From assembly GCA_963737265.1 (NCBI GenBank), contig CAVTRY010000025.1, positions 1 through 59,653 on the forward strand: a stretch of 59,653 nt of DNA, written 5' to 3'. The notes under the pieces were generated by a model. The model was given only the letters and a program-made list of their open reading frames with translations. It was not told where the DNA came from and searched no databases. Of this stretch, positions 40,321 to 58,265 are shown piece by piece (the stretch's first letter is position 1; each line of letters begins with the position of its first letter). This DNA comes from an uncultured delta proteobacterium (lineage in GTDB: Bacteria; Myxococcota_A; Polyangia; Fen-1088). A program made the translations under genes and the position numbers.

Positions 40321-40352
40321 GTGGCAGGATGTCACGCGAGGCAGACTGCCAC
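40321..40352. promoter_or_regulatory. Tandem palindrome UAS copy 1
   Basis: GTGGCAggaTGTCAC-GC-GAGGCAgacTGCCAC. Confidence 0.8.
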
Positions 40353-40414
40353 GTGGCGGGGCGCTCGACCTTTGGATTTGCGTGCAAGGCTGCTGGGGAG
40401 TCTCGCGCAGTGAT

Positions 40415-40430
40415 CGGCATGCGGTTTGCT
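40415..40430 (+). promoter_or_regulatory. Sigma54 promoter
   Basis: CGGCATG-CGGT-TTGCT, followed by GGAGG RBS and ATG 40464. Confidence 0.75.
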
Positions 40431-40463
40431 GCGCACTTGCACCGAGGAGAAAGGGAGGACGCC

Positions 40464-40720
40464 ATGGCCCGCAGTCTGAGGATGACATTGTGATGGGCGT
40501 ACGCAGCTCATTCTTCCTGATGGTCTTCCGCCGCAATGCTGCTCGCCAACGGCGGATGCAGGAAGCAGGTGAGCAGGGGCGTTCTCAGAATTTGCCGGCG
40601 CAGTCTCCAGGACCTTTAAGAGACCTCGACCGACCAAATTGCGACAGTGAGCGCATTGAAGGAGCAGCTAGCCCAGCCCCTGGCCAAGGTGAAAGCAAAC
40701 CGGGAGATTGAACAGCCTGC
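40464..40720 (+). pseudogene. Nonsense-disrupted paralog of the 53698-54030 coiled-coil lipoprotein
   Basis: MARSLRMTL*..*..AMLLANGGCRKQVSRGVLRICRRSLQDL*..SALKEQLAQPLAKVK aligns with MTRTLKTL..FLLVSAGCEDKESQEALKTCRNDL..DLKAQLAQAEAKIE. Confidence 0.72.
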
Positions 40721-40732
40721 CCCCGAAATTCC

Positions 40733-43693
40733 TCAGCTAGCTGAGATGCCAGGGCGATGTCGCATCCGATGTCCGCGGCTAGCGCGACGGTCGGCCGGCG
40801 CCTTGGCGCGATCGTCGACCGTCGGTGAGCCCTTGGCGCGATATTCTCGCCTGGCTGGCTCGATGAGGTCGCCTTCTTGATTTCGGTCCTCGACTGTAGC
40901 GAGCCTGTTCAGCGCCGGCTGGGTGCTCGCGCGATCTCCCACGACGACCACCAGCAGATTGTCTGGCCTGAAGTACTTTTGCGCCATCCGGCGCACTTGC
41001 TCCAGGCTGACCGCCGCGATCTGGCGGACGAAGGTGCCGAGCTCCGTGGGCGGTAGATTGTATACCGACAGGGTGGCCATTTGCGTTGCGAGCTGGCTGG
41101 CGGTGGCAAAGCGAGCGGGAAAGGCACCGATGATTTCAGCCTTGGTATCGGCGAGCTCTGCGCTAGTCACGTCGCCGGTGCGCATTCGGCCCATTTCCTC
41201 CAGGATTTCCTTCACCGCATCGGCCGTGTGCTCAGCCACGAACTCGCCGCTTACTGTCCATGACCCGGCCGCACGTCTGGCATCGAATCGCGAGGTCACG
41301 CCGTAGGTCCATCCCTTGTCTTCACGCAGATTCATGGCTAGGCGCTTGAACGCACCACCCAGTATTTGATTGGCCACCAGGGCGCCGTAGTAATCCAGAT
41401 TGTTGCGCTCGATGCCGGGTAGGCCGATGCGAATCGACGATTGTGGTGCGCCGGGTTTGTCGACTAGGACAAGGCGTAACTTGTGGGACGCGTCGACTTT
41501 GGGCAGATCGATTGAGGGAACCTTCTTCCGCCGCCAACTCGCCAGCAGGGGCTCGATCTTGGTGCGCACTTGCTCTTCGGTAATATCACCGGCAACGGCC
41601 AGTACGGCGTTGTTAGGTCTGTAGAAGGTCTCGTAGAAATGCTGTAGTTCGCCGCGCCGGAGCCTTCTGAGCGACTCCTCGGTGCCCGAATCAGGCCACG
41701 CAAAGGGATGCCCATCGCCCCACAGCGCGCGCGAGAACACCTGGCTTGCCACGACGGGCGGATAGTCCGTGCGCAACGCCAGCGAAGAAATCAGGTTGCC
41801 CACGACCCGTCTGAGATCTTCTTCGGCGAAGGCGGGACCTAGCAAGACGTCAGCCCAAATGAGGATGGCTTGGTCCAGGTTCTCGGTGAGCGTGCTCAGC
41901 GCGACTCCAGAGGAGTCCCAAGTAGCATAGGTCGTCAGGGTTGCTCCGAGCCGCGCAACCTCGCTTGCGATTTGAGTCGACGTGCGTCGGTGGGTTCCCT
42001 CGTCGAGCATATCCGTGACCAAGCTGGCCAGCCCCGCCTTGTCCGTTCCGTTTGCACTGCTTCCCGTCTTCACGATCATGTCCATATCGACGAGAGGCAG
42101 CTTGTGCGATTCGGCCAAGATGACTTGCAGGCCATTCTTCAAACCGAAACGCTTCACCGCCGGCACCTTGAACGGTTCTATCTTTCCCGGCGGTGGAATC
42201 GTTTCGCGGAAGGCGGCATCGGGAGTCGTGCGCAGTGGCGTCTCGCTTGGTTCGGCTCGCGGCGGGATTCGATTATCCACCGATACTGGTCTGCTCGCAC
42301 TCTGCGTGGTTGCCCGTATCAACCGTCCCATGATGGGAGCGCTCGGATTTGGTTCGACATCGATCACTACGCGTTGGTTCTTGGTGAGTATTTTCTTCGC
42401 CCAGATTCCAAGAGATTCCGGAGTTGCTCTTTCGTAGCGTTGCAGATCCTGGCTCAGGTAGGCCGGGTCATCCGCGAACACGTCATAGTAGAGCAGGCGA
42501 GATGCCAGACCAGACAGCGTTTCCATGCTCTGCAGAAGGCCGGTCTTGATTTGATTCTTGGCCCGCTCGACCTCCTCGCGCGAGGGTGGCCGGGCGAGCA
42601 GCCCGTCGAGCTCCTCGTCGATGACACGCTCAACTTCGGTCAGGCTGTGTCCCTTCATGGGGGTGTAGTCGATTTCGAAAGTACCGCAGTACATGCGACT
42701 CAAATGGGTCACCGACACGGATTCCGCGATTTTGAGGTCATGGACGAGCAGCCGGCAGAGGCGGGAGCTCTTACCCTCGCCAAGAATATTGGCCAGCATG
42801 TCCAATTCGGCGTCGCCAGGCATGAACACCGGCACCGTATTCCACGCCATCTGGCCATAGGGAAGATTGATCTTGGCTTCCATGGCCAGCCGACGCTCGG
42901 CCTGCTGTGGCGGAATGGCCGGAGTGGGCGAGCGCTGCATGGGCGGTCCCGCCGTGATGGGGCCGAAGTACTTTTCGATGAGGCCCTTGGTCGCGGCAGC
43001 GTCGATATCGCCAGCCACGAGCAGCACGGCGTTTCCAGGTGCATAGAAGCGATTGTAGAAGTCCTTCAAATCCGCTTCGGAGGCTGCATTGAGATCTGCC
43101 ATTGAGCCCACGACCTCATGGCGGTAGGGGTGACCCACGGGGAAGAGCGCCTCCAACTGGACACGAGCGACTCCGCCAAGGGGGACGTCTTCTACAGTTT
43201 GGCGACGTTCGTTTTCCACGACGTCGCGCTCGGTGGCGAAGTTCTTTCCGAAAGCAGGGTGGTCCAGCAGGAATCCCATGCGCGAGCTTTCAAGCCACAA
43301 TCCAAGCTCAAGTTGCGATGCCGGCAGGGTTTCGAAGTAGGCCGTCCGATCCGTATCGGTGGCACCATTTCGTGCAGAAGCCCCGGCTTTCGCCAGATAT
43401 TTGAAATACGCACCTTTGGGGATCTGCTTGGTGCCCTCGAACATCATGTGTTCGAACAAGTGAGCGAATCCGGTTCTGCCGGGGCTCTCGTCTTTCGAGC
43501 CGACCTTGTACCAAACCTCGACGTGAGCCATGGGGACGCTGTGATCGACATGCAGCAGAACTTCGAGCCCATTGGCCAAACGGTGCTGTTCAAACGAAGT
43601 GTCGAGCGCCGCATCGGCAGGTGGCGAATGGAAGAGCAGGTAGGCGACTCCCCAGGCGAATGGCAAGGCAGACTTGAACTGACGCAAGGTCAT
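40733..43693 (-). CDS. M16 (pitrilysin/PqqL-like) zinc protease, secreted, single-chain
   Basis: Signal peptide, GFAHLFEHMMF (HxxEH), second inactive M16 half. Confidence 0.95.
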   Translation of the reverse strand: MTLRQFKSALPFAWGVAYLLFHSPPADAALDTSFEQHRLANGLEVLLHVDHSVPMAHVEVWYKVGSKDESPGRTGFAHLFEHMMFEGTKQIPKGAYFKYLAKAGASARNGATDTDRTAYFETLPASQLELGLWLESSRMGFLLDHPAFGKNFATERDVVENERRQTVEDVPLGGVARVQLEALFPVGHPYRHEVVGSMADLNAASEADLKDFYNRFYAPGNAVLLVAGDIDAAATKGLIEKYFGPITAGPPMQRSPTPAIPPQQAERRLAMEAKINLPYGQMAWNTVPVFMPGDAELDMLANILGEGKSSRLCRLLVHDLKIAESVSVTHLSRMYCGTFEIDYTPMKGHSLTEVERVIDEELDGLLARPPSREEVERAKNQIKTGLLQSMETLSGLASRLLYYDVFADDPAYLSQDLQRYERATPESLGIWAKKILTKNQRVVIDVEPNPSAPIMGRLIRATTQSASRPVSVDNRIPPRAEPSETPLRTTPDAAFRETIPPPGKIEPFKVPAVKRFGLKNGLQVILAESHKLPLVDMDMIVKTGSSANGTDKAGLASLVTDMLDEGTHRRTSTQIASEVARLGATLTTYATWDSSGVALSTLTENLDQAILIWADVLLGPAFAEEDLRRVVGNLISSLALRTDYPPVVASQVFSRALWGDGHPFAWPDSGTEESLRRLRRGELQHFYETFYRPNNAVLAVAGDITEEQVRTKIEPLLASWRRKKVPSIDLPKVDASHKLRLVLVDKPGAPQSSIRIGLPGIERNNLDYYGALVANQILGGAFKRLAMNLREDKGWTYGVTSRFDARRAAGSWTVSGEFVAEHTADAVKEILEEMGRMRTGDVTSAELADTKAEIIGAFPARFATASQLATQMATLSVYNLPPTELGTFVRQIAAVSLEQVRRMAQKYFRPDNLLVVVVGDRASTQPALNRLATVEDRNQEGDLIEPARREYRAKGSPTVDDRAKAPADRRASRGHRMRHRPGISAS

Positions 43694-43707
43694 GACAGAT
43701 GGTGACT

Positions 43708-43723
43708 AGCACGAGTCATGCCG
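43708..43723 (-). promoter_or_regulatory. Sigma54 promoter of the M16 protease
   Basis: CGGCATG-ACTC-GTGCT on the minus strand. Confidence 0.6.
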
Positions 43724-43794: not shown

Positions 43795-43826
43795 GTAGCG
43801 AATTGTCACGTGAGGCGGGGCGCCAC
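43795..43826. promoter_or_regulatory. Tandem palindrome UAS copy 2 (between divergent promoters)
   Basis: GTAGCGaatTGTCAC-GT-GAGGCGgggCGCCAC. Confidence 0.72.
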
Positions 43827-43878: not shown

Positions 43879-43894
43879 TGGCACGTCGAATGCA
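43879..43894 (+). promoter_or_regulatory. Sigma54 promoter of receiver protein 1
   Basis: TGGCACG-TCGA-ATGCA. Confidence 0.78.
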
Positions 43895-43920: not shown

Positions 43921-44388
43921 ATGGAAACGAACAGCGACTTGGAAATGAGTTTGGGGACGAGGGCGCCGAGGGGGCCAGGCAAGACTCTCAAACGGCGATC
44001 GCGCGTGCTTATCGCGGAAGATGACTGGGGCTTCAGGGACATGCTGCTTTTCGCCTTCGAGGACGAAGGCTGCGAAGTCGTGGCAGTGGGCGACGGCGCT
44101 TCCCTGCTTCAAGTCCTCGCATCCTCAATGCTCCCGAAGTCTGGCGTAAAGCCGTTCGACCTGGTTGTGTCCGACGTGAGAATGCCGGGATGGAGCGGTC
44201 TTACAGCCCTGGAAAAGCTCAGCCAAGACCCAAAGGTACCTCCGGTTGTCGTGATCACGGCCTTCGGCAGCGAAGAAGTCCACGAGCGAGCCGCGCGAGC
44301 CGGGGCAGCGGCGGTGTTGGACAAGCCTTTCGATATTCCAGACTTGACGGCCATTGGTCGTCGCGTGATCGCCCAGCACGCGGCATAG
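43921..44388 (+). CDS. Single-domain response regulator (receiver) 1
   Basis: VLIAEDD, SDVRMPG, ITAFG, DKPF. Confidence 0.93.
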   Translation: METNSDLEMSLGTRAPRGPGKTLKRRSRVLIAEDDWGFRDMLLFAFEDEGCEVVAVGDGASLLQVLASSMLPKSGVKPFDLVVSDVRMPGWSGLTALEKLSQDPKVPPVVVITAFGSEEVHERAARAGAAAVLDKPFDIPDLTAIGRRVIAQHAA

Positions 44389-44651: not shown

Positions 44652-45110
44652 ATGAAACTCGACGACTTGAAGTTGATCCTGGTTCCAACGGACTTTTCCG
44701 AAGCCTCGGAGGTAGCCTTGAACGCCGCGGTCAGCCTGGCCCAGACCTTCCACGCCGCGATCGAGATCCTGCACGTCGACTTGAATCCGGTGTTGGTCTT
44801 ACCCCCGCCCGGCGACGTCTTCGCGATGCCGATCGTGATGGAGGGTCTGATGTCTCGCGCCGCGGAAAAGGTGGAGCGGATCGTGACCGAGGTGCGCGAG
44901 AAGAAAGTCGTTTGTAATGGAGCCTCCGAGATGGGGCGGACCTACACGTCCATCGTCGAGCACGCCATTCGGATCGGCGCTGGCTTGATCGTGATGGGCA
45001 GCCATGGGCGGCATGGCCTCGGCCATCTGCTGCTTGGCGGCGTTGCCGAAAAGGTCGTGCAACACGCGCCCTGCGCCGTCTTGGTCGTGCCAGTCGATCC
45101 CAAGGCCTAG
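44652..45110 (+). CDS. Universal stress protein (Usp)
   Basis: ILVPTDFSEAS, LIVMGSHGR, LLGGVAEKVVQHAPCAVLVV. Confidence 0.95.
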   Translation: MKLDDLKLILVPTDFSEASEVALNAAVSLAQTFHAAIEILHVDLNPVLVLPPPGDVFAMPIVMEGLMSRAAEKVERIVTEVREKKVVCNGASEMGRTYTSIVEHAIRIGAGLIVMGSHGRHGLGHLLLGGVAEKVVQHAPCAVLVVPVDPKA

Positions 45111-45344: not shown

Positions 45345-46542
45345 CGAATAGATGGCCAACTCGTCGTTCGCGTGGTGATCGATGATATCGGCGAAGAGCT
45401 TGATGGCGTCGTCGAAATGGTTGTAGTCATAGAAGACACGCGCCTTGCGGTACTTGATTTTGACCAGCTCGGGCGCATCGGGCACGTACTTGATATAGGT
45501 GTCGAAAGCCTCAATCATCTTGTGCTGGTACTCGGGGATAGGCCGCGGCTCGAGGTTGTTCTCTCTTCCCTTCTCCTTGTCCACGCCTTCACCCTCGTCG
45601 CTGATGTTGAGAGCGTTCTTCCATGCCAGCACGGCGGCGTAGGCTGCCTCTTTCACATACTTGCCCTTGGGATCCAGCCTGACGACCTTCGTGTAGACCT
45701 CGGCTGCTTCTTTCCAATCATTCATCTGCCATAGAATCTCGCCGTAGTAGAAGGTGATCTCCGGGGTGTCCTTTTCGTTGGCAAAGTGGCTCAAGAACTC
45801 CTTGTAGACCATTCCCGCCAGTTGGTACGTGTCGGCGTTCTTGGTCCGCTGCGCTTCCTTGTGCCAGATCAGCGCCAGCTCTTTCGCGGTGTCATGGTAC
45901 ACGTCTTTGCATTCGCTCATGAGGTCCTTCTTGACGTCCTGTCTTTTGGCCAGTGCCTCGTAGACGTTGCCCAGCCGCTTGAGCTCTTGTACCTGGTCCC
46001 TCTTGTTGCCGCTCAACAAGGTGTTGCGCAGGATCTTGTCCTGCCATTCGCAAAGACGCGTCGATCCTTCGTTGAGCGCGATAATCTTGCGATAGATCTT
46101 CGACGACTCGGGAAACATGCCTTGTTCCCAATAGAGCTCGGCCAGCGCATCTAGCATCTTGGGTGCGTCGTCGCCGCCCATGCGTTCGAAGAACTCCCAA
46201 GCCTTGTCGGGACTGGCCCCTGGCGTTCGTCCATAGGCCTTGACCAGAATCCTTTTTTGCCTCTCGTTCGAGAGGCACGGCCTGGTTCTTGGGGATCTTC
46301 CCATTTTGACAGAGCTGGATGACCTTGACGAAGATCTCAAGGGCGTTCTTGAAGTTGCCCAAGTTGATTTCGACCCAGCCCTTCTTGTACAGGGCGTAGC
46401 CGAACACGGAAGAGCCCGTGAACTCGGTGACCTTCTCGTAGAACTTGCCTGCGTTCTCCATCTCGCCCTTTTGGAAATAGAGCTCGGCGAAGGACAGGTA
46501 GGCGTTCGGGACGTACTTGGACTGAGGATAGTCCTTGAATAG
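45345..46542 (-). pseudogene. Internal, frameshifted fragment of a large TPR protein (GltD/AgmU-like gliding protein)
   Basis: LFKDYPQSKYVPNAYLSFAELYF..YALYKKGW..EAKKD/LVKAY..WHKEAQRTK..EAAYAAVLAW..; 1-bp insertion near 46248; no in-frame start and no natural end. Confidence 0.75.
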
Positions 46543-46583: not shown

Positions 46584-46599
46584 TGCATTCTCGATACCA
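46584..46599 (-). promoter_or_regulatory. Sigma54 promoter before AAGGAGG-ATG(46549)
   Basis: TGGTATC-GAGA-ATGCA on the minus strand. Confidence 0.68.
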
Positions 46600-46644: not shown

Positions 46645-46676
46645 GTGGCAATCAGTCCCGCGTGGCAAATCGCCGC
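46645..46676. promoter_or_regulatory. Tandem palindrome UAS copy 3 (degenerate)
   Basis: GTGGCAatcAGTCCC-GC-GTGGCAaatCGCCGC. Confidence 0.65.
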
Positions 46677-47150: not shown

Positions 47151-47182
47151 GTGGCAAGCCGCCTCGCGAGGCGTGCGGCCAC
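47151..47182. promoter_or_regulatory. Tandem palindrome UAS copy 4
   Basis: GTGGCAagcCGCCTC-GC-GAGGCGtgcGGCCAC. Confidence 0.72.
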
Positions 47183-47225: not shown

Positions 47226-47241
47226 AGGCACTCTTCATGCA
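47226..47241 (+). promoter_or_regulatory. Sigma54 promoter of receiver protein 2
   Basis: AGGCACT-CTTC-ATGCA. Confidence 0.62.
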
Positions 47242-47254: not shown

Positions 47255-47722
47255 ATGCAAACTTCGACGCGAGACAGTTCAGACTCCGACGGTATCTCGA
47301 TGCGTAAGGCACGCGGGGGAAAGACTGTCCGTCGCTTGGGCCCCCAGCGACTGCTGCTCGCCGAAGATGACGGTCCGTTTCGTTTTCTGCTCACGTCGGC
47401 CCTGCGCAAAGACGGGTACCAGATTGTCGCCGTATCCAACGGTGTGGATCTGATGGATATCCTCGGCGATTCGCTTAGCCCGGACGGCACTTTCGCCGCC
47501 TTCGACCTCATGCTCTCTGACCTTCGCATGCCGGGATGGCCGGGGCTAGAAGCCTTGGCCAAGGTGGGACGCAATCCCGGCATGCCGCCGTTCATACTTT
47601 TCACTGCGTTTGGCGACGAAGATACCCACAAGCGCGCGCTTGAAATTGGCGCCCTGACCCTACTCGACAAACCATTCGATATCGACTACCTGCGCGAGCT
47701 TGCGGCGCTGGTGCTTGGCTAA
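47255..47722 (+). CDS. Single-domain response regulator (receiver) 2 (start 47255 or 47300)
   Basis: LLLAEDD, SDLRMPG, FTAFG, DKPF. Confidence 0.9.
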   Translation: MQTSTRDSSDSDGISMRKARGGKTVRRLGPQRLLLAEDDGPFRFLLTSALRKDGYQIVAVSNGVDLMDILGDSLSPDGTFAAFDLMLSDLRMPGWPGLEALAKVGRNPGMPPFILFTAFGDEDTHKRALEIGALTLLDKPFDIDYLRELAALVLG

Positions 47723-50017
47723 TCACAGATTCGTCCCAATATTTCCTATGGAAATGCTGGGGCCGAACAGTAACGACCAGTGGGTCGCGTCGCTATGGGC
47801 AACGCCGTCCGGGGAGGTGTATGCATAGGCGGCTCGGAATTCGTAGGCGCCCCACAGATGGACGCCTACCGCGGCGCCTTGGCCGACCTCGACGCGCAGT
47901 CCGATCCCGAGCAGCGTGACCAGGGTCGGGGGAAACGGCAGTGTGTTGATGTATTGCTGAGGAATAAGGCTCGCGCCAAGCACGCCAGTTTCGAGTCCCA
48001 GCAAGCCTTCCTTGCCCTGTCGGTTGAGCCAAGTCAGGCGGCCGAGCACGCCGAAGTTGAGGGTCATGGAGGCCGCCGGCTGGTTGATGCGGTAGAGACC
48101 GGCCGGAACATTGAGGCTGACGTAGAGGCGAACGTGGCCGCCCTCGACAGTCGCTGACCATTGTACCGAAGGTGGCTCCTGTTTTCCGCTGGTGTCCAGA
48201 ACGTAGCGAGTTTCGTCGACGACATGGGACAGCCTGACCTCGATCTGGTCGAATTGTTCGGTGATGCCCTTGAGAAAGAAAACCCGCGGCTCGCCCCCGG
48301 GCCTGAGCACCATGTGTTCGTTCACGCTGGCGTCCGAGCGCTTGCCCCCGCTCGCCTTGGTGACTTCGATCTCGAGAACGATCTGCTGCTGTCCGTCTTC
48401 AGGCGATACGCGCTCTTGGTGGATGACCACTCGGCACGTTGCCCGAGCAGAGTATGGAATGCGCGCGGGTTTGCCCGGAATGAGGGCGTGGGCATTACCG
48501 TGAGCGTCGGCACATAGGAATTCGGCGATGGGATCCTTGCGTGTTGCTGTGGCGTCGAACGCAACGGGAACGCTGGCCTCGCGCAGCGGACGCTCCACGG
48601 TTTCGCTCAGAATGGCCAGGTTCACATCGGAAAACTCCTTGGGCAAGTCATCGCGACGATAAGCGTAGCGCAAGCTCACGAACCCGCCGCTCTTTCGGTT
48701 TCCACGTAGAAGGTTGCGATCCTTCTCGGTACGCAGGGTGTAGGCACCAGGAAGCTCAAGAGGCAAGAACCTCGCGTGGGGCACACCACCCACGGACCAC
48801 AAGGCATCGCGATTGGTCGGTATGAAATCGATGGGACTGTGGCCAGGCAGTTCCAGCGTCGATTCCGGTCGCGGCGCTGGCGCGGTCGGGGTCGTCACCG
48901 AACCCAATACCCCGGCCACGGAATCCGCGCGCGTCGCCGAGATGGTGACGCTTCCACCCGCAAGCTGCTCCGTACGCAAGAGCACATAGTCACCGTCACT
49001 GGTGTGAACGGTGCGGACAATCTCCGCGGGTTCGGTGCCGACGGACCAGCGCAGTCGGGCGCTGCTTCGGCATCGCTCGGCTACCTTGACCAGAATCTGG
49101 GGTTCATCCGCGTCGCGCAGGGGTGGGCCAGAAACCACGGTGATCGGGCAGCGTAGAATCGTGAAGGTGCCAGCCGTGCTACTTTCCGTCCGGTCTCCGC
49201 GGCTGATGGCGAAACGTGGTGACAGACGTGCTGTGACGGCGATCTGGGTCGACTGCGCCGGGACGCCGCGAACCAGAATCCCGCCTTCGCCCAGTTCGCA
49301 ACGGGCCAAACCGCAGTCGACACTGGCGATCGCTTCCGGATGCACCAAAGGCAAGACGCCCATTCCCTGCGAGACGTCCAGGGATTCCGTCGCGGCGAAT
49401 ATCTGCCCAACGACGGTACGCGCGGGCCTGAGCTTGAACGAGGCGACGTCCACACGCTGTCCTTGGCTGTCGAAGGTGGTCACGTCTGGACCGTCCTTGG
49501 CGTATGCCGGCAGCCAGCGAAACGCGGTGTCGAAGGGGAGCTTGCGGGCGAGCGGGATAGCACACTGCTGGAACTTGCCGGTGGCCGTTGGCGCAAGACA
49601 GGCTTCCTGGCCGCTGTGACTGGGCGACTGCCACAGGATTTGACTTTGTTCGACATTCGTTCCCTTGAATTCGAGGCGGCCTTCGTCGGGATAGAAGGCA
49701 ACGCTTGAAGGGTCGATATCGGGCCAGCGGCCGACAGCGATCAAAGTCAGCGCGGATTTTGCGTGCGCGCAGCCATTCGGATCCGCGGCCACCTGGACTT
49801 CGACGGTCCGGTTGGAGACACTTGCGGCTTCGGGCGGGCGCACCGACTGGCGATCTCCAGAGGATGTCCACCCGTCGGGTGAAGGACTGCAAAGCACGCG
49901 ATTCTTGCCAAGAGGGACTGCGTTGGCGCCCTCAGGAACTTGGAGGGTTTCAGCAAGCGCGACAGCATCGGCTAATGAAACGACGAAAACGACGGCAAGG
50001 AGAATGCGTTTTTTCAT
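47723..50017 (-). CDS. Secreted/outer-membrane hypothetical protein (764 aa)
   Basis: Signal peptide MKKRILLAVVFVVSLADAVALA; paired Cys; amphipathic beta-strand-like C-terminus. Confidence 0.85.
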   Translation of the reverse strand: MKKRILLAVVFVVSLADAVALAETLQVPEGANAVPLGKNRVLCSPSPDGWTSSGDRQSVRPPEAASVSNRTVEVQVAADPNGCAHAKSALTLIAVGRWPDIDPSSVAFYPDEGRLEFKGTNVEQSQILWQSPSHSGQEACLAPTATGKFQQCAIPLARKLPFDTAFRWLPAYAKDGPDVTTFDSQGQRVDVASFKLRPARTVVGQIFAATESLDVSQGMGVLPLVHPEAIASVDCGLARCELGEGGILVRGVPAQSTQIAVTARLSPRFAISRGDRTESSTAGTFTILRCPITVVSGPPLRDADEPQILVKVAERCRSSARLRWSVGTEPAEIVRTVHTSDGDYVLLRTEQLAGGSVTISATRADSVAGVLGSVTTPTAPAPRPESTLELPGHSPIDFIPTNRDALWSVGGVPHARFLPLELPGAYTLRTEKDRNLLRGNRKSGGFVSLRYAYRRDDLPKEFSDVNLAILSETVERPLREASVPVAFDATATRKDPIAEFLCADAHGNAHALIPGKPARIPYSARATCRVVIHQERVSPEDGQQQIVLEIEVTKASGGKRSDASVNEHMVLRPGGEPRVFFLKGITEQFDQIEVRLSHVVDETRYVLDTSGKQEPPSVQWSATVEGGHVRLYVSLNVPAGLYRINQPAASMTLNFGVLGRLTWLNRQGKEGLLGLETGVLGASLIPQQYINTLPFPPTLVTLLGIGLRVEVGQGAAVGVHLWGAYEFRAAYAYTSPDGVAHSDATHWSLLFGPSISIGNIGTNL

Positions 50018-50047
50018 GGCGTAATTCAAAGAGGCGGCAAAGTGCGA

Positions 50048-50730: not shown

Positions 50731-50737
50731 TCGCCAC

Positions 50738-50769: not shown

Positions 50770-50813
50770 GGCGTGAAGGCTGGCGATCTCGACTCCGACC
50801 CATGTTCTGACCG

Positions 50814-50829
50814 TGGCACGTCGCTTGCT
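50814..50829 (+). promoter_or_regulatory. Sigma54 promoter of the OmpA/MotA/MotB-like operon
   Basis: TGGCACG-TCGC-TTGCT, full consensus match. Confidence 0.9.
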
Positions 50830-50843
50830 GCCGCGTTCCTGGC

Positions 50844-51728
50844 ATGCAATCAGAAAGTCATTCTTGCAGAACCTATTCCTGGCTAACCGTTTCCTCGACC
50901 CTTCTGCTTTTCGGGGTTGCGGCCAGCGCGTGCGTGACCAGCGGAACCTTCGACAAGAAGGTCGCCGAGCTGGACAAGCTTCGCGCCGACCACGACCGCG
51001 CGGCGGCTGAGCGAGAGAAGGATCTCAAGGCGCAGATCGATGCTCTCACAACCCTGCGGGACGATTTGCGCAAGAAGGCCGACGATATGACGGCGCTGGC
51101 TGGTGAGCTTCGCTCCCGGCTCGAGAAGCTGGGACAGAATGTGGACAAGCTCACCAGTGAGAAGGGGCAGCTGGCGCAAGTCCTCGCCGACGCCAAGGCT
51201 CGTCTCGACGACCTACGAAAGCAGAAGGCCGCGGCCGAAGCGCGCGCGGCGACGTTTCGCAATCTCGTCGCTCGCCTCAAGTCCATGATCGATGCCGGCC
51301 AGCTCAAAGTCGTCATTCGCGATGGCCGCATGCTTATCGCTCTGCCCAACGATGTCTTGTTCGATTCGGGGAAGACCAATATCAAACCGGACGGCCAGAC
51401 CGCGCTGGCCCAGGTCGCCAAGGTCCTGTCGACGATTCCAGACCGCAACTTCCTGGTCGCAGGCGACACCGACGACGTTCCCATTCACACAGCTCACTTT
51501 CCCTCGAACTGGGAGCTGTCCACGGCCCGCGCCGTCGAAGTGACGAAATTCCTCATCGCGAATGGTATGCGGCCGCAGGTTCTCGCCGCTGCGGGGTACG
51601 GGGAGTTCGACCCCGTGGTGGCGAACGATTCGCCCGAACATCGGGCCCAGAACCGGCGCATTGAGATTGTTCTTCAACCCAACCTCGCCGATCTGCCTTC
51701 TCTCGACGAAGGCAAGACGACTCCATGA
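50844..51728 (+). CDS. Coiled-coil lipoprotein with C-terminal OmpA/MotB peptidoglycan-binding domain
   Basis: Lipobox ASAC; LPNDVLFDSG, SNWELSTARA, NRRIEI. Confidence 0.92.
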   Translation: MQSESHSCRTYSWLTVSSTLLLFGVAASACVTSGTFDKKVAELDKLRADHDRAAAEREKDLKAQIDALTTLRDDLRKKADDMTALAGELRSRLEKLGQNVDKLTSEKGQLAQVLADAKARLDDLRKQKAAAEARAATFRNLVARLKSMIDAGQLKVVIRDGRMLIALPNDVLFDSGKTNIKPDGQTALAQVAKVLSTIPDRNFLVAGDTDDVPIHTAHFPSNWELSTARAVEVTKFLIANGMRPQVLAAAGYGEFDPVVANDSPEHRAQNRRIEIVLQPNLADLPSLDEGKTTP

Positions 51729-51762: not shown

Positions 51763-52620
51763 ATGACAAGTACAATGCTCGGCGGGCTATCGCTTATTGA
51801 TGCCACTGGCCTTGCAATTCTTGCAACGACGATCACCGTGCTCATGCTTGGCATCGCCGCCAACCTCTGGCTACGCTCGCGCTACGCCGTATTGGAAAAT
51901 GAGCTTCGCAGCCGGCCCGATGGCGAAGCGACCTTGTCGCATCCCGTGCTCCGCAATATCGTTCGCGACGTGACCGAGGCGGCAGGGCGTTCGAGGGAAA
52001 TCAACACCCAGGCTATTATCGACGACCGCTTTCAGTCCGATCTTCGGCCGATGCTGCTTGCTGAGCGCTTTATCCGCGCCGCAACCGGGTTGGTCATCAT
52101 CCTCGGGCTCCTCGGCACGTTCTACGGGCTCACGCTGTCGATCGGAAAGATCGTTCACTTGGTCGGCACGGAGACAAGCGTCGGCACCGACGTGGCACAA
52201 GGGGTTAGCCAGGGTTTGACCAACGCTCTGTCCGGTATGGCGGTAGCTTTCTCGAATTCACTGGTTGGAATTTTCTCCGCGGTGATTCTTACCGTGCTCG
52301 GAATCCTGTCGAATGTCTCGGACCGGCGGACCGCGGTGATGATCCAGATCGAAACCTACCTTGCCGGGATTCCCGTGCAGGTGCCTGGTGCAAGTGGGCC
52401 GGCCGAAATCGCGGGCTTCGGCGGTTCAATCGCGCGGCTCGAAGGCGTGGTCGTGCGTTTCGAGTCGGCTTTGCAAACCTTTGCCGCCACGACCAGGGAC
52501 TTCCACGAGTTCAACGCTCACCTCAAGGACAATGTGCAACGGCTCAGCTTGACTTTTGCCGACATGAACGATTCGCTGAAAGCACAGCTTGGGACCATCG
52601 GGCCTGCGCGGAAGGGCTAG
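51763..52620 (+). CDS. MotA/TolQ/ExbB-family proton-channel subunit (ZorA-like, short helical tail)
   Basis: ILGLLGTFYGL..LSGMAVAFSNSLVGIFSA, 3 TM helices. Confidence 0.88.
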   Translation: MTSTMLGGLSLIDATGLAILATTITVLMLGIAANLWLRSRYAVLENELRSRPDGEATLSHPVLRNIVRDVTEAAGRSREINTQAIIDDRFQSDLRPMLLAERFIRAATGLVIILGLLGTFYGLTLSIGKIVHLVGTETSVGTDVAQGVSQGLTNALSGMAVAFSNSLVGIFSAVILTVLGILSNVSDRRTAVMIQIETYLAGIPVQVPGASGPAEIAGFGGSIARLEGVVVRFESALQTFAATTRDFHEFNAHLKDNVQRLSLTFADMNDSLKAQLGTIGPARKG

Positions 52621-52626: not shown

Positions 52627-53535
52627 ATGCCCATGCGATCCCGGAGGCCGCTTCTGTCCGATCACGATGGTACGCGCGAGATCTGGCCCGCTTTCACGGA
52701 CGTCATGTCGACCATGGCACTCATCATGTTCGTTCTGGTCTTGCTTGCCTACGTCCGGAACTTGATCGGCGAAAAGCGCCTGGAGGATTTTCGCCAACGG
52801 ATCGCGGCCTCCGAACGCCAGCTCAAATCCGTACAGACCGAAGTCCAAGCGGGCAGGGCTGAGCTTGCGGCATCCCAGCGCAGGTTGTTCGATCAGCAGG
52901 CCGTCGTGGCCGATAGCAATCGCCAACTGAGCAACCTGCGCGCCCAGCTGCAAAACATCGCGGTTCTGCGCGTCTCAGTGCTCGACAAATTGAAGAGCGC
53001 TATCGAGGCCCAACTCGGGCCCACCGGCGCGGGTGGTGGACAGCTCGCCACCATCGGCGACAACGGCGATATCGCGGTCAACGAGAGTCTGGTGTTCGAG
53101 TACAACTCGCATGCGATCAAGAAGCAGGCCAAGCCTTTCCTCGATTCGCTGGCCAAGGCGCTCGGCAATCTGCTGGCCGATCCCGAGGTGCGTGAGAACA
53201 TCGACACCATCGTCATCCAGGGCCACACCGACGAACGCGGCTCAGCCACCTTCAATTGGGATCTGTCGGCCAAGCGTGCGACCGCGGTGCTCGACTACCT
53301 GTTCCAGACCAACAAGACGCTCGCCGATAGCTATGGCAGCTACTTCGCCGCCAGTGCCTACTCGAAGTTTCGTCCTGTCAACCGCGAGCAATCCGAAACG
53401 GCCTACCAACAGAACCGCCGCATCGAGATCTCCGTCGTGCCCAAGGACGCCAACGTGCGCAAGGTGATTGAGGACTACATGCAGGGCAGCGCCGCTGTAT
53501 TGCAGCCGGCCGGCCAGCCTGCTCAAGGGCAGTAG
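52627..53535 (+). CDS. MotB/ZorB-like subunit: TM with conserved Asp, coiled coil, OmpA-like domain
   Basis: WPAFTDVMSTMAL TM; IQGHTD, NWDLSAKRA, NRRIEI. Confidence 0.9.
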   Translation: MPMRSRRPLLSDHDGTREIWPAFTDVMSTMALIMFVLVLLAYVRNLIGEKRLEDFRQRIAASERQLKSVQTEVQAGRAELAASQRRLFDQQAVVADSNRQLSNLRAQLQNIAVLRVSVLDKLKSAIEAQLGPTGAGGGQLATIGDNGDIAVNESLVFEYNSHAIKKQAKPFLDSLAKALGNLLADPEVRENIDTIVIQGHTDERGSATFNWDLSAKRATAVLDYLFQTNKTLADSYGSYFAASAYSKFRPVNREQSETAYQQNRRIEISVVPKDANVRKVIEDYMQGSAAVLQPAGQPAQGQ

Positions 53536-53543: not shown

Positions 53544-53575
53544 GTGACAATTTGCCACGCGAGGCAAGTTGTCTC
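53544..53575. promoter_or_regulatory. Tandem palindrome UAS copy 6
   Basis: GTGACAattTGCCAC-GC-GAGGCAagtTGTCTC. Confidence 0.85.
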
Positions 53576-53619: not shown

Positions 53620-53635
53620 TGGCATGTCGCTTGCT
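53620..53635 (+). promoter_or_regulatory. Sigma54 promoter of the small lipoprotein
   Basis: TGGCATG-TCGC-TTGCT. Confidence 0.88.
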
Positions 53636-53697: not shown

Positions 53698-54030
53698 ATG
53701 ACTCGCACACTCAAGACTCTCGCTACCGTCTGCCTCGGGGCCTTCTTGCTCGTCAGCGCGGGGTGCGAAGACAAGGAGAGCCAGGAAGCTCTCAAGACAT
53801 GCAGGAACGATCTCAGCAATGTCCAAAAGAACCTCGCGACCCAGACCACAAGCGCGAATGACCTGAAAGCGCAGCTCGCTCAGGCGGAAGCCAAAATCGA
53901 GGAGCTCACCAAAGCCAGCGAGGGCGGCAAGGAGGCGAAGGCCGGTAAAGCATCTGAGCCGAAGGCCAAGTCCGCAGAGGCAAAGAAGGCCGAACCTTCG
54001 AAGGCCGAAAAGAAATCCGCGAAGAAATAG
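53698..54030 (+). CDS. Small coiled-coil lipoprotein with Lys/Ala-rich tail
   Basis: AAGGAG RBS, lipobox SAGC. Confidence 0.85.
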   Translation: MTRTLKTLATVCLGAFLLVSAGCEDKESQEALKTCRNDLSNVQKNLATQTTSANDLKAQLAQAEAKIEELTKASEGGKEAKAGKASEPKAKSAEAKKAEPSKAEKKSAKK

Positions 54031-54318: not shown

Positions 54319-54365
54319 GAAGTTGGTAAGAACCCTTCGTGGGTTATTACAGCAAAGGATTCGTA

Positions 54366-56240
54366 GTGACTGAGCACCCCTTTCGTGATGTCTTCGCATT
54401 TCGCCGCCACTTTGTAGATTTCGGAACGCTGCTTCTTCTTTGCGCCGTCGTCGGCGTCATCGCCGGTCTTGGTGCGGCTGGATTTCACTACCTGCTCGGG
54501 CTTGCCAAGCACCTTTTGCTGGACGGGCTGGCGGGCTATCGGCGATCGGGACCAGCGGGGGAGGTGCCGCTGTTTGCGGAAACCGCGCGCCCTTTGTCCC
54601 GACTGATTCTCTTCGGACTGCCAGCACTCGGCGGCCTGGTGAGCGGGATTATTGTCTACCTACTTGCGCCCGAGGCAGAGGGGCACGGCACCGATGCCGC
54701 AATCGCCGCGTACCATTTCCACGACGGAAAGATTCGAGCCCGCGTTCCCTTCGTCAAAGCCATCGCGTCTGCCATCACCATGGGCACGGGTGGCTCGGCT
54801 GGCCGGGAAGGTCCCATCGCGCAAATCGGCGCAGGGCTCGGCTCGAACATCGCGGGCTGGCTCGGGCTTTCCGCACGTCAACGGCGCACCCTCATGATTG
54901 CGGGCATGGGGGCTGGCATTGGCGCCATCTTCCGCGCCCCACTGGCCGGGGCACTCTTCGCCGCCGAGGTGCTCTATCGGGATATGGACCTCGAACCCGA
55001 GGTCGTGGCGCCGGCCATCCTGTCGTCTATTGTTGCGTACAGCACCTTTGGTTCCATTTTCGGTTGGCATGCTCTGTTCGAGACACCGAACTTTCGCTTT
55101 CGCACGCCGATGGAGCTTGGTCCCTACCTGGTGCTGGGCTTGGTGATCGCGCTCGGGGGCCGAACGTATCCCCAGGTGTTCTACGGCATTCGCAACTGGT
55201 TCAAGAAGCTTGCCATGCCCAACTGGCTGAAGCCCGCCGTCGGGGGGCTGATGGTGGGCGGCGTGGGGCTCTTTGTTCCCGAGGCGCTCTCGACGGGATT
55301 CGGCGTGGTGCAGAAGGCATTCCAGGGTCAAGGAACCGTGCTCACCTTGTTGGCCATCGCGGGCGCCAAGATGCTGACGACTTCCCTTACTGTGGGCTCC
55401 GGCGGCAGCGGCGGCGTTTTCGGGCCGGCCGTTGTCATCGGGGGTGCCCTCGGTGGTGCGGTGGGGTTGGTCTTTCACGGGTGGCAGCCTGCGCTGGTTC
55501 CCGACCCAGGTGCCTTTGCCATGGTCGGCATGGCTGGATTCTTCTCCGCTGCGGCTCACGTGCCAATCTCGACGGTCATCATGGTCAGCGAAATGACCGG
55601 GAACTACCATCTGCTGGTCCCTACCATGTTCGTCTGCATGCTGGGATTCCTGCTCGTCAGGCATCACACCATCTACGAGAAGCAGCTTCCGGCGCGCTCG
55701 GCGTCTCCCGCGCAACAGCGCCAGATCATCCGCACGCTTCTTGAGCACACCAAGGTCGAGGACATCCTGGCCCTGCGGCCAAGAGAACCTCCGGTTTCAG
55801 TGAGTGAGCGAACGCCTTTGCCAGTCGTGCTCGAGCGATTCGCATCCGGAGGCCAGCCTTGCCTTCCCGTGACCGGGCATGGCGACGCGCTGGTGGGCGT
55901 GGTTTCATTCCAGGCGGTGCAACAGACGCTGAGTAGTCGAGCGGCCCTGGCCAACCTGATCGTGACACGCGATCTCGTCACCCCCGCGGTAACCGTCACC
56001 GCCGACCAAAGCCTGTATTCAGCGCTGGCCAAGATGTCGGCCTTCGACAGCAGGGAATTACTCGTCGTGGCGAATCAGGACTCGCATGAGAAGGTGATTG
56101 CCATCCTCACCAGCGGCGACATCAACGCCATCTACGACGAACAGATCCTCAATCCGCCACAAGCCGAGCCGGCCGCGAGCCTCGCGCTTGCGAAAGTGAT
56201 CAAACGATTGCTTCCCAAGGGTTGGTCACGCGGCGCCTGA
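54366..56240 (+). CDS. ClC-family chloride channel/antiporter with C-terminal CBS pair
   Basis: EAEGHGTD, GREGP, GGVFGP, TIYEKQ; CBS-like tail; AAAGGA before GTG 54366. Confidence 0.94.
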   Translation: MTEHPFRDVFAFRRHFVDFGTLLLLCAVVGVIAGLGAAGFHYLLGLAKHLLLDGLAGYRRSGPAGEVPLFAETARPLSRLILFGLPALGGLVSGIIVYLLAPEAEGHGTDAAIAAYHFHDGKIRARVPFVKAIASAITMGTGGSAGREGPIAQIGAGLGSNIAGWLGLSARQRRTLMIAGMGAGIGAIFRAPLAGALFAAEVLYRDMDLEPEVVAPAILSSIVAYSTFGSIFGWHALFETPNFRFRTPMELGPYLVLGLVIALGGRTYPQVFYGIRNWFKKLAMPNWLKPAVGGLMVGGVGLFVPEALSTGFGVVQKAFQGQGTVLTLLAIAGAKMLTTSLTVGSGGSGGVFGPAVVIGGALGGAVGLVFHGWQPALVPDPGAFAMVGMAGFFSAAAHVPISTVIMVSEMTGNYHLLVPTMFVCMLGFLLVRHHTIYEKQLPARSASPAQQRQIIRTLLEHTKVEDILALRPREPPVSVSERTPLPVVLERFASGGQPCLPVTGHGDALVGVVSFQAVQQTLSSRAALANLIVTRDLVTPAVTVTADQSLYSALAKMSAFDSRELLVVANQDSHEKVIAILTSGDINAIYDEQILNPPQAEPAASLALAKVIKRLLPKGWSRGA

Positions 56241-56248: not shown

Positions 56249-56671
56249 CTAGGCTCCCTTCCCGGCCAAGAAGTTATTGACGAAAACCCGCAGCTCGTCG
56301 ACATCGAGTGGCTTGTCGAGCACTGCCAACGCGCCGACGTGATGTGCCTGTTCATGCAGTTCCTCGTCGCCGAATGCGGTGATGAACACGACGGGCGGAA
56401 TATTGGGTCCATACCCCACTTGAGTGAAGACGCGCAACCCAGTCATGCCAGGCATTCGGACATCCGAGATCACCAGATCGAATCTTTCCGAACCAAGACT
56501 GGGATCGAGCGCGTCCAGAAGATCGAATCCACTGGCCACTGCGACGACGTCATGTCCGTCCGACCTAAGAAGCGCAACCATCATCTCGCGAAAAGCCCGA
56601 TCATCTTCCGCCACCAGCAGCCGATGTCTGCGGGAACGGTTGCCATCTGAGTACGTTTCTAAATCATGCAC
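56249..56671 (-). CDS. Single-domain response regulator (receiver) 3
   Basis: LLVAEDD, SDVRMPG, ITAFG, DKPL. Confidence 0.92.
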   Translation of the reverse strand: MHDLETYSDGNRSRRHRLLVAEDDRAFREMMVALLRSDGHDVVAVASGFDLLDALDPSLGSERFDLVISDVRMPGMTGLRVFTQVGYGPNIPPVVFITAFGDEELHEQAHHVGALAVLDKPLDVDELRVFVNNFLAGKGA

Positions 56672-56683: not shown

Positions 56684-56699
56684 TGCACGAGCGGTGCCA
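56684..56699 (-). promoter_or_regulatory. Sigma54 promoter of receiver protein 3
   Basis: TGGCACC-GCTC-GTGCA on the minus strand. Confidence 0.72.
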
Positions 56700-56741: not shown

Positions 56742-56773
56742 GTGGCGGCCTGCCTCGCGTGGCATCTTGCCAC
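56742..56773. promoter_or_regulatory. Tandem palindrome UAS copy 7
   Basis: GTGGCGgccTGCCTC-GC-GTGGCAtctTGCCAC. Confidence 0.85.
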
Positions 56774-56784: not shown

Positions 56785-57714
56785 TCAGCGGATGGTGTAG
56801 TCCGATGCGACCTTCTGGCCATTGCGCTCCAACCCAAGGTCGAGATGGCTTGCTGACTTGAGCTTACCGTAGACCTCCAGAGCCTTTTCAGGGCTGGTCA
56901 TCTCCAATCCATTGATGGAAGCGATGACGTCGCCGTTTTGCAGTCCGATTTTCGCGAACGGGCCGTCGGGCCTAACCGCGAACAGGCGGAAACCGGCGGG
57001 TTTGCCGCCACGTATTTCGGGCACGATGCGTGCCGATCGCGAGAGTAGAGCTAGGTTGCCGAGCACCGAATCGAGGGTGCCCCTTTGGATTTCGTATCGA
57101 CGGTCGCCGAGCTTCTTGATGCCGCGGTCGAGTTCCTGGGAAAACGCATCGACTGGCTGGGCCGGTGGCGGTGCGGTGCGGGGAGGGCGAACCGGCGCGG
57201 CCTTTGGCGGGAGAAGGAGATCGAGAAATTCGGTCGTTCCGGCATTGTCGATGTACACGCGGGTGTCGGCAATGCTGAGCAAGGTGGCGCCGTGGATTTG
57301 CGCTCCCTCGCTGAAGGCCCCCACCGTCTTTTCGTCGTTGTTGCGAATGACTGCCATGTTCCACTTGTGCGCCTTGGGCGTAGGCGCGTACATGACAGCA
57401 AGAAGCTTAAGCGGCAGCTGAGTTGGCTGAGGTTGCAGAGGGGCCATGTCGGGCAAAGTCACCGGTTCTGGATCGCCGTCCAGTCGGATGGGCGGGCAAG
57501 TCGAGCAGAAGATGTTTCGCCGAAGAATCGCATTCGGCTGCTTGCTGCGAACCTGGGTAGGCGAAGGTAAGGGGGCTTGCGCGGCTGGTGGTTTCGGATC
57601 TTGCGCCTCGCCGAGTCGGTAGGCGACCAGACTGGAGGCAGAGCTGCCCAAAACTGCCGCACAGACCGCTACGACGGCCGCGTCCAACAGCCACATGTAC
57701 TGGGCGAGAAGCAT
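56785..57714 (-). CDS. gspC: Type II secretion protein C-like (TM, HR domain, PDZ)
   Basis: ILRRNIFCS, LKLLAVM, ARIVP..GFRLFAVRPDGPFAKIGLQNGDVIASING. Confidence 0.88.
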   Translation of the reverse strand: MLLAQYMWLLDAAVVAVCAAVLGSSASSLVAYRLGEAQDPKPPAAQAPLPSPTQVRSKQPNAILRRNIFCSTCPPIRLDGDPEPVTLPDMAPLQPQPTQLPLKLLAVMYAPTPKAHKWNMAVIRNNDEKTVGAFSEGAQIHGATLLSIADTRVYIDNAGTTEFLDLLLPPKAAPVRPPRTAPPPAQPVDAFSQELDRGIKKLGDRRYEIQRGTLDSVLGNLALLSRSARIVPEIRGGKPAGFRLFAVRPDGPFAKIGLQNGDVIASINGLEMTSPEKALEVYGKLKSASHLDLGLERNGQKVASDYTIR

Positions 57715-57737
57715 TTCCACTTCGAAGTGCGCAAAAG

Positions 57738-57753
57738 AGCAACTCCCGGACCA
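57738..57753 (-). promoter_or_regulatory. Sigma54 promoter of gspC
   Basis: TGGTCCG-GGAG-TTGCT on the minus strand. Confidence 0.68.
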
Positions 57754-57768
57754 ACCCGGGGAATGGGC

Positions 57769-57784
57769 TGGCATGGCATTTGCG
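57769..57784 (+). promoter_or_regulatory. Sigma54 promoter of the small lipoprotein
   Basis: TGGCATG-GCAT-TTGCG. Confidence 0.75.
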
Positions 57785-57828
57785 ACCGGAAGGGCTTTCG
57801 CCAACATTCAGAACTTGGAGGTCCGCGC

Positions 57829-58221
57829 ATGCTTCGAGACGCACTTGCAGTCCCATTCCTCGTCGCGTTGGCATGCTCCTGCGCCTCGGCCCCGGTTCAA
57901 GCGCCTGTCCCAAGTCCGGTTGCCCCCAATCCAGCGGTCGCAGTCGTGGCTCCCGCGCCTGAGGTTGCGCCAACCCTTACGGTTGCCTCGACAGGCGAAA
58001 AGCAGCGCGATCTGAAGGCTGGCGAGTGCCAAGAAAGCTTCGATTGCACGGATACCGTCGGGTTTCCTCCTGCGGGGCAACGCTGGACGTGCGAGAATGG
58101 GAAGTGCGGGCACGCTAAGCTTCCAAATCTCAACCCGGAAGCATCCGCCGCCACGGGTGCGAACGCTGACAACAGCAAGGACACGCCGAAAGTCAGGAAG
58201 GCCAAGAAGCGCCAGAACTAG
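57829..58221 (+). CDS. Small lipoprotein with 4-Cys mini-domain and basic tail
   Basis: GGAGG RBS; LACSC; ECQESFDC..WTCENGKC. Confidence 0.8.
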   Translation: MLRDALAVPFLVALACSCASAPVQAPVPSPVAPNPAVAVVAPAPEVAPTLTVASTGEKQRDLKAGECQESFDCTDTVGFPPAGQRWTCENGKCGHAKLPNLNPEASAATGANADNSKDTPKVRKAKKRQN

Positions 58222-58233
58222 GCGAGATGTGGC

Positions 58234-58265
58234 GTGGCACTCTGCCACGTGAGACGAAGTGCCAC
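58234..58265. promoter_or_regulatory. Tandem palindrome UAS copy 8
   Basis: GTGGCActcTGCCAC-GT-GAGACGaagTGCCAC. Confidence 0.82.

Follow-up and report, generated by a model that had tools for sequence, protein, structure and literature searches.

Paired palindromic elements phased to sigma-54 promoters as candidate sites of one two-component activator in uncultured Polyangia

The window analysed here, a 59,653-nucleotide stretch (contig C25) of the 6.55-Mb genome G000 of an uncultured delta proteobacterium of the Polyangia, carries between positions 40321 and 58265 eight 32-bp palindromic elements that are very probably binding sites of one sigma-54 activator, which would switch on envelope and stress genes together with stand-alone receivers in uncultured soil myxobacteria. 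We judge with good confidence that these elements serve a single NtrC-family two-component system of Polyangia as upstream activator sequences; its candidate partners are a membrane kinase and a bacterial enhancer-binding protein (bEBP) encoded next to such an element. The structure of the sites, their orientation and phasing, their place before the regulator operon, the domain content of that operon and the co-occurrence of bEBP and elements are directly observed. The regulon is previously undescribed and its class of mechanism is textbook. Other contigs of G000 are cited as C11, C12, C14, C15, C16 and C23; G010 is a related genome, L-numbers denote retrieved loci and X-numbers sequencing runs.

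Element structure and promoter phasing

The whole of G000 was searched with a symmetric position weight matrix (PWM), which returned 17 matches of 27.9–40.8 bits, the next best scoring 14.6 and thus leaving a gap of 13 bits. Eight of these lie in the window, exactly where the first-pass annotation had placed them (40321–40352, 43795–43826, 46645–46676, 47151–47182, 50738–50769, 53544–53575, 56742–56773 and 58234–58265, the third being degenerate), one on C15 (68908), six on C16 (409582–421418) and two on C23. Upon leave-one-out rescoring the window elements reach 22.7–37.4 bits and are outscored by other elements only, the same set being recovered. The first 40 kb of the window, in which the first-pass annotation had seen no convincing copy, reach at most 1.7 bits, and reversed-pattern controls gave zero matches in G000. 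The regulon is therefore not the single ~18-kb island initially proposed, as its copies occupy four loci in G000 and one 64-kb cluster in G010.

Together with its two flanking bases, the 32-bp core has the consensus of two end-to-end 17-bp palindromes, CGWGRCR-N3-YGYCWCG, with no spacer. Across 48 deduplicated promoters the core is preceded by C in 83% and followed by G in 81%, positions farther out being unconserved, and the same C and G are kept in 33 and 40 of the 48 distinct elements found in metagenomes. The conservation of these flanking bases makes the element a pair of abutting 17-bp palindromes (34 bp), so that the positions first given for two 15-bp palindromes stand whereas the GC or GT spacer between them does not; the third abutting half-site described for some copies is not conserved across the 48 promoters. 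Unpaired 15-bp units number 28 in G000 and only 2 are near a -24/-12 site, which indicates that the unit is the pair.

A strict element pattern served as second search tool. It is present in 58 stretches of a species collection, 51 of them titled Myxococcales, Polyangia or delta-proteobacterium, and in 10 of 12 same-genus genomes, the latter with zero control matches. Its false positives beside pheS are rplT coding sequence of some Polyangia (L025, L049, L054, L072, L134 and L188). A degenerate phylum-wide pattern matched 90 of 401 genomes, and was set aside as uninformative because its reversed control matched many too. One locus from a bin titled Phycisphaerae (L051) holds an element with two outward promoters beside a bEBP of the clade described below, by transfer or mis-binning.

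The site scan reproduced exactly all the element–promoter gaps listed earlier, seven of the eight window elements having a GG-N10-GC (-24/-12) site. On the forward strand these are found at 40415–40430 (gap 63), 43879–43894 (53), 47226–47241 (44), 50814–50829 (45, a consensus site) and 53620–53635 (45), and on the reverse strand at 46584–46599 (46), 56684–56699 (43) and, as the divergent site of the second element, 43708–43723 (72); the gap-46 and gap-72 sites are weak, with three mismatches each. Element 58234 has no outward site. An extra -24/-12 site at 57769–57784 (+) has no adjacent element and is conserved in G010, L171 and L062; from their arrangement, element 58234 may serve this promoter from downstream.

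We have extended this analysis to 84 elements from the pattern loci, G010 and G000, four of which (three from Streptomyces, one from Atopobiaceae) were removed before counting; sites were sought within 150 bp, and 78 elements have full flanks. An outward -24/-12 site is found in 60 of these 78, against 5.9% of 5000 random places, and an inward one in 7 of 80. Similar promoters were clustered, which reduced 66 element–promoter pairs to 48 (the rplT loci L025, L049 and L072 also being removed), and the resulting gaps group at 42–46, 52–56, 63–69, 74–75, 84–88 and 97–98 bp. The best phase period is 10.5–11 bp (R 0.70), a value matched by none of 5000 jittered sets. The metagenome scan (71 stretches, 48 distinct elements, 45 with full flanks), whose lineages overlap the first set so that it is not fully independent, gave outward sites in 31 of 45 and inward sites in 3; 23 of its 25 deduplicated gaps fall in phase windows covering 53% of the range, with a best period near 10 bp. 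The helical phasing first proposed is hence borne out, with a period of about 10–11 bp instead of 9–10.

Given the window gaps, the element centres lie ~85 to 114 bp upstream of the predicted start, which falls within the ~80–150 bp typical of the paired dyad sites of NtrC-type bEBPs (PMC4987338). None of the 48 gaps contains an IHF consensus, and scans for sigma-70 promoters and terminators gave chance-level results only. The sigma-54 gene rpoN is present on C12.

Two observations concern the surroundings of the elements. On C23 (215101–215215) two elements stand back to back 51 bp apart, while their G010 orthologues are 1 kb apart. Homology to G010 ends a few bases from the promoter-distal element edge at window 40321, 47151 and 53544 and at C23:215184, for which deletion trimming is the simplest reading.

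A kinase–bEBP pair as candidate activator

Positions 50038–50926 of the window are 96–98% identical to pieces of C15, where genes for a 503-aa kinase and a bEBP lie downstream of element 68908, which faces their promoter at a gap of 53. In the window copy ~1.2 kb of the kinase gene with its promoter and ~1.2 kb of the bEBP gene are deleted, so that what remains is the HATPase end of a histidine kinase (50189–50727, -) and the first ~17 codons of the bEBP fused to its helix-turn-helix (HTH) (50048–50217, -), the receiver and AAA+ domains being lost; C15, in turn, has lost most of its OmpA and MotA-like genes. The two loci form a duplication with reciprocal deletions. The fifth window element (50738) is the duplicate of C15:68908 and has lost its kinase-side promoter. 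The C15 pair is most likely the working copy, the window keeping a deleted duplicate only. The activator family assumed in the first-pass annotation is thus retained, whereas the HTH it had singled out (50048–50167) is the remnant of the deleted duplicate, and the full operon is on C15.

In G010 an intact pair (P0004 and P0003) lies inside a 64-kb cluster of 15 elements; parts of this cluster correspond to the window, C15, C16 and C23. Its bEBP, P0003, has the receiver domain (REC), the AAA+ domain with Walker A and B and the sigma-54 loop GAFTDA, and the HTH. C15, G010 and L048 all have an element facing the kinase–bEBP promoter, and both sides of C15:68908 and of G010:494399 are flanked by divergent sigma-54 promoters. 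In G010, L035, L060 and L064 the gene of a 768-aa exported protein lies 3' of the bEBP gene; given this placement in several loci, the gene (window 47723–50029, -) probably belongs to the autoregulated operon. Its product matches nothing in Pfam, NCBIfam or PADLOC.

Within the family, at least two elements occur in each of the 11 genomes whose bEBP is at least 70% identical, against 8 of the other 78. Of 401 genomes sampled from the phylum, 50 encode the kinase. Among its distant loci, 40 of the 57 listed places were retrieved and the bEBP adjoins the kinase in 38; a degenerate 15+2+15 element is seen beside about 14 of these 38 pairs, often just 5' of the operon or just 3' of the bEBP gene, and in a seeded search only a spacer of 2 exceeds the controls (19.9 versus 11.3–12.4). 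The bEBPs form one clade of 46 rows in a quick tree (Shimodaira–Hasegawa-like approximate likelihood ratio support, SH-aLRT, 98), the C15 gene being the only member in G000. The loop GAFTDA, listed as an activation-competent variant (PMC4641369), is kept in 37 of 38 clade bEBPs. Taken together, we hold with high confidence that a bEBP of this clade would be the protein that binds the elements.

None of the best 25 matches for kinase or bEBP reaches an NCBIfam equivalog cut-off, and among the best 120 of 157 kinase homologues there is one named Sorangium protein and no Myxococcus name, most being unnamed. The RNA run X7 contains contigs of a relative's kinase–bEBP operon, which is not proof of transcription. 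A second, truncated kinase copy stands behind an element at L077:6949–7449 (G010:C1), with genes for MarR, nitric oxide reductase and, by inspection, a ClC-like protein nearby.

Sensor, target genes and window content

The kinase consists of a transmembrane helix, a small single Cache/PDC domain, a second transmembrane helix, HAMP, HisKA and HATPase. The fold predicted for the N-terminal part, with the single Cache/PDC domain between both helices, has a predicted local distance difference test (pLDDT) score of 91, the single-sequence prediction reaching 57. Its nearest solved structure by Foldseek is the WalK ectodomain (E 9e-6 to 9e-5), and by VIA-align 4zr7, WalK and CitA (Z 11.2, 11.0 and 10.7), PhoR-like ectodomains being also near; such likeness of fold alone proves no function. 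Pfam sensor families gave no match to 28 kinase N-termini. The domain would suit envelope state or a partner protein better than a fixed small ligand, and the balance tips slightly towards envelope or osmotic damage as the signal.

Among 89 open reading frame (ORF) calls adjacent to elements, stand-alone receivers form the largest cluster (21), followed by a small coiled-coil lipoprotein (7), Pal/OmpA proteins (5 and 3), a membrane glycosyltransferase (4), and SCO, kinase and CpoB-like TPR proteins (3 each). The 41 promoter sides from the metagenomes comprise 13 receivers, 7 Pal-like proteins, 5 lipoproteins, 3 SCO, 3 glycosyltransferases, 2 M16 peptidases, 1 kinase, 1 TPR protein and 6 sides with other genes or none. 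Additional element-led genes in G010 encode SodC, Tsp (with ClC behind it) and a protein that resembles HSP20 on inspection and has no family match; OtsA, MlaC, LepB and a MoxR-vWA set also lie in its cluster.

The receivers retain the acidic pocket and the phospho-Asp, Thr and Lys residues, phospho-Asp and Lys being invariant. The six best matches of a receiver profile in G000 all have an upstream element; since the hidden Markov model was trained on element-led receivers, this result is partly circular, as is the finding that a stand-alone receiver adjoins the kinase in 16 of the 40 distant loci (17 flagged, one being a hybrid). Two loci, L081 and L107, have kinase and receiver with no bEBP within the retrieved stretch, which suggests a genuine partnership between the receivers and this kinase family. 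L107 corresponds to G000:C14:79544–81406, with a paralogous kinase, a receiver upstream and a Ser/Thr-kinase-like gene (by inspection) downstream, and neither bEBP nor element. That the receivers would act as phosphate sinks or branch points is, in our estimation, about as likely as not.

Within the window, the first element precedes a broken gene for a small coiled-coil lipoprotein (40464–40740, +; end approximate), seen as stop-split lipoprotein-like stretches in three-frame translation, the orthologous stretch of G010 matching the C23 lipoprotein gene. The second lies between divergent genes, one for an M16 peptidase with signal peptide (40733–43693, -), faced by the weak gap-72 site and element-led in L132 and L183, and one for the first stand-alone receiver (43921–44388, +), followed by a universal stress protein (Usp) gene (44652–45110, +) that has no element of its own and is possibly reached by read-through from this receiver. 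The third faces a frameshifted internal fragment (residues ~209–607; 45345–46542, -) of a CpoB/YbgF-like TPR gene; in L055 and L061 this gene stands behind an element. The fourth leads the second receiver (47255–47722, +) and the seventh the third (56249–56671, -), all three receivers retaining their phospho-site residues.

The fifth element leads a coiled-coil/OmpA-domain lipoprotein (50844–51728, +), followed by an accessory MotA-like (51763–52620) and MotB-like (52627–53535) pair (+), which has no tblastn hit in any other retrieved locus. This pair is of the short stator type, its MotB retains the transmembrane Asp, there are no flagellar or Zorya neighbours, and elsewhere in G000 only the C15 remnant is found. 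Its assignment to Zorya was rejected, as the MotA-like protein has only 285 aa with a short ZorA match (30 of 100 bits) and no ZorC/D/E-like gene is among the annotated neighbours. Downstream, the sixth element leads a 110-aa coiled-coil lipoprotein with a Lys/Ala-rich tail (53698–54030, +), a recurrent target with no family match, and the ClC-CBS channel/antiporter gene beyond it (54339–56240, +) is possibly read through from the 53620 promoter. Of the ~18-kb envelope/ion-stress module first described, the receivers and lipoproteins stand, forming the conserved cargo along with Pal/OmpA proteins, and the ion motor, absent from all other retrieved loci, does not. GspC, listed there as a possible member, is not faced by any element: this paralogue (56785–57807, -; true start probably near 57700) of a core copy on C16 (54%) merely ends beside the seventh element. 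The extra site at 57769 precedes a gene for a 137-aa Cys-rich lipoprotein-like protein (57808–58221, +) belonging to no known family, and the eighth element is followed by the 5' remnant of an otsA-like trehalose-phosphate synthase gene (58367–58460, +), whole in G010. The window is best described as an eroded part of the regulon with a deleted duplicate of the regulator.

Just outside the regulon, the window encodes an exported protein of 1325 aa that carries nine or more Big_2 Ig-like repeats (35474–39451, +). It also holds a 336-aa lipoprotein-like ORF (58548–59558, -), Trp/Gly-rich and then with a Gly/Phe/Arg-rich tail, which has no family match and whose DNA region has two homologous copies in the G010 cluster. 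No tRNA gene occurs in the window or in the G010 cluster, and one tRNA-Ala lies at the edge of the C16 cluster.

In the mechanism we propose, the membrane kinase would autophosphorylate on its signal, most likely envelope or osmotic damage, and then phosphorylate the co-transcribed bEBP (REC, AAA+ with GAFTDA, HTH). Two bEBP dimers would occupy the abutting 17-bp palindromes, whose geometry is observed, with their centre ~85–105 bp upstream of the start. The bEBP would activate its own operon, as a positive feedback, together with envelope genes (Pal/OmpA and coiled-coil lipoproteins, TPR, Tsp and M16 proteases, glycosyltransferase, SCO, SodC and ClC) and several paralogous phosphorylatable stand-alone receivers, and these would probably accept phosphate from the same kinase, damping or distributing the signal.

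Alternative readings and known systems

Several observations weigh against this interpretation. No outward site within 150 bp is found for 18 of the 78 elements, three of which are chance rplT matches; 24 of the 38 distant pairs have no convincing element in the searched stretch, and 24 of the 40 distant loci no stand-alone receiver. The cargo beyond the core differs between genomes. The co-occurrence of bEBP and elements spans two or three related genera and is not an independent test. In addition, no column of the sensor is invariant across 28 sequences, some of which do not have part of the sheet, so that the signal cannot be read from the sensor. Alternative explanations, which are not mutually exclusive, have been weighed.

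The best of them keeps the same activator and assigns it to a low-oxygen or dormancy programme, as in NmpR, or to a general stationary-phase programme, instead of an envelope response. The presence in the clusters of SCO, cytochrome c, Usp, CBS, BON, SodC and trehalose genes fits such a role, as does the fact that NmpR likewise controls a Usp (PMC11841059) and that, among four runs examined, the small-share carriers are peat and permafrost runs. However, the genes that elements lead directly encode for the most part lipoproteins, Pal/OmpA proteins, proteases and receivers, no oxidase operon is seen behind an element in the examined loci, and the sensor is a periplasmic Cache fold near WalK, CitA and PhoR-like ectodomains rather than a cytoplasmic protoglobin. 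These points render the explanation unlikely, although it fares better than the others.

The system might also be a decaying relic in G000, with a dead activator and silent sites. As assembled, G000 has no intact clade bEBP, given that the C15 gene carries one extra base, hence a frameshift, before the HTH and that the window copy is deleted; moreover, genes behind elements 40321, 46645 and 58234 are broken and the cluster is scattered over four loci. Against decay, the elements and their -24/-12 sites remain near consensus and most window targets are free of frameshifts relative to G010. In fact, the C15 frameshift looks like an assembly or polishing error: all three insertions of the C15 operon fall in the 24% of it that has a second copy in the window, a placement with a chance probability of ~0.015. 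At each insertion the sequence can be read as a combination of the window allele with a G010-like one, as we would expect of polishing across two copies. Run X1, possibly the source sample, contains near-identical sequence: two of its pieces, at roughly twice the depth, stop at the duplication junctions, another spans a C15 deletion junction, and a contig of this near-identical strain does not have the additional base at the HTH, although its origin may be the window copy. The C15 bEBP gene is probably intact, and a relic is unlikely, somewhat more so than the low-oxygen programme.

A third explanation accepts true sigma-54 enhancers but has them read by a different bEBP of G000, the linked kinase–bEBP pair being merely one target. 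Candidates are numerous, with 48 PF00158 matches and ~39 full bEBP domains in this genome, and one of them, C11:821059, is sister to the clade with a recognition helix (LDRKTLYRKL) that resembles the clade's; the elements, besides, stay strong even though the C15 gene is frameshifted as assembled. Yet element number follows the close bEBP, an element adjoins the kinase–bEBP pair across the phylum, the frameshift has the marks of a polishing error, and the seven other same-genus genomes with a close bEBP have full-length, stop-free copies, which leaves this explanation very improbable. Lastly, a role as REP-like or RNA hairpin repeats, or as recombination sites for cassette shuffling, is hardly credible for the elements: they are palindromic and able to fold, and G010 homology often ends at their promoter-distal edge, but there are just 17 copies, oriented and phased to promoters instead of spread genome-wide without relation to sigma-54, variable palindrome positions show no excess of complementarity over shuffles (0.50–0.60 versus 0.54–0.64), there is no Rfam match, and the flanks of 126 elements contain no reassortment (four-gamete) cycles, a test of low power.

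Returning to the reading of the elements as sites of one envelope or stress activator, a literature search, mostly of open-access text without figure logos, yielded no description of the motif or of the system. The first-pass annotation had recognised neither motif nor gene set from any described system; the motif has a near precedent. This is the site of DVU3305 of Desulfovibrio vulgaris, a 15-bp 6-3-6 palindrome GTTGCR-N3-TGCAAC validated by electrophoretic mobility shift assay (PMC3333781, Table S7), which shares the 6-3-6 geometry and differs by one base per half from GTGGCA-N3-TGCCAC; position 3 is T there and G in 92–100% of cases here, T being found in half-sites of distant clade members. 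Similarities extend to the DVU3303–DVU3304–DVU3305 system, where a sigma-54 response regulator acts on its own operon and an extra receiver and UspA genes are among the targets (PMC3333781; PMC4641369). The bEBPs, compared by loop and description, nevertheless differ, with GAFSGA there (PMC4641369) and GAFTDA here. The third component there is a receiver-Lon fusion in place of several stand-alone receivers (the four G000 loci contain no Lon_C domain, the nearest lying ~28 kb from the C16 cluster), and the DVU3305 sites listed in PMC3333781 are single rather than abutting pairs. Two DVU0679 sites listed 17 bp apart (PMC3333781, Table S7) show that abutting sites have a precedent. The DVU3305 motif is the nearest validated motif, and its activator differs in the loop from the one proposed here.

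ZraS/ZraR-ZraP of Salmonella and E. coli and DVU3381 resemble the present system in the autoregulated membrane kinase and NtrC-type bEBP, the divergent sigma-54 promoters and the envelope-stress output (PMC4987338; PMC4641369). However, the bEBP scores 380 bits against a ZraR cut-off of 760 and the kinase 153 against a ZraS cut-off of 479, no ZraP-like gene is seen here, and 15–17 sites contrast with the two promoters described there. The system works like ZraSR or DVU3305, yet by these scores and features falls outside both.

Other systems are more distant. NmpRSTU of Myxococcus xanthus shares an NtrC-like regulator, paired palindromes, a receiver-only protein (NmpT) proposed as phosphate sink and a Usp target, but its site is GCGCA-N5-TGCGC, mostly with 14–15 bp between sites, and a cytoplasmic protoglobin kinase, a phosphorelay and an oxygen-use output replace the kinase with two transmembrane helices and Cache/PDC domain found here (PMC11841059). 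FlbD of Caulobacter and DVU1063 have the GGCA...TGCC core with five central bases in the listed sites instead of three (PMC3333781); the bEBP scores 299 against an FlbD cut-off of 750 and no flagellar targets occur here. Nla28 and PexR of M. xanthus are likewise bEBPs with repeated sites upstream of sigma-54 promoters (PMC7910581; PMC12754779), though Nla28 reads direct repeats CT(C/G)CG(C/G)AG (PMC7910581) and PexR, a one-component GAF sensor, CACCG-n6-CGGTG (PMC12754779).

A more speculative extension, which we regard as tentative and on the whole doubtful, is that of a sigma-54 envelope or general stress hub of one Polyangia lineage, with a set of three to five induced paralogous receivers as its chief product. 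These would compete for the hub's own kinase, as a multi-sink brake on the positive feedback or as a phosphate fan-out towards non-transcriptional targets, with short phased IHF-free loops formed from dimers 17 bp apart and element 58234 acting from downstream. With this finding an uncharacterised kinase–bEBP family, which through its named homologue extends to cultured Sorangium, gains a motif, an activator, a sensor and a target set. Functions are likewise suggested for several lipoproteins of unknown role and for the stand-alone receivers as a family, and the 48 natural element–promoter spacings display face-of-helix dependence across many promoters of what is very probably one activator.

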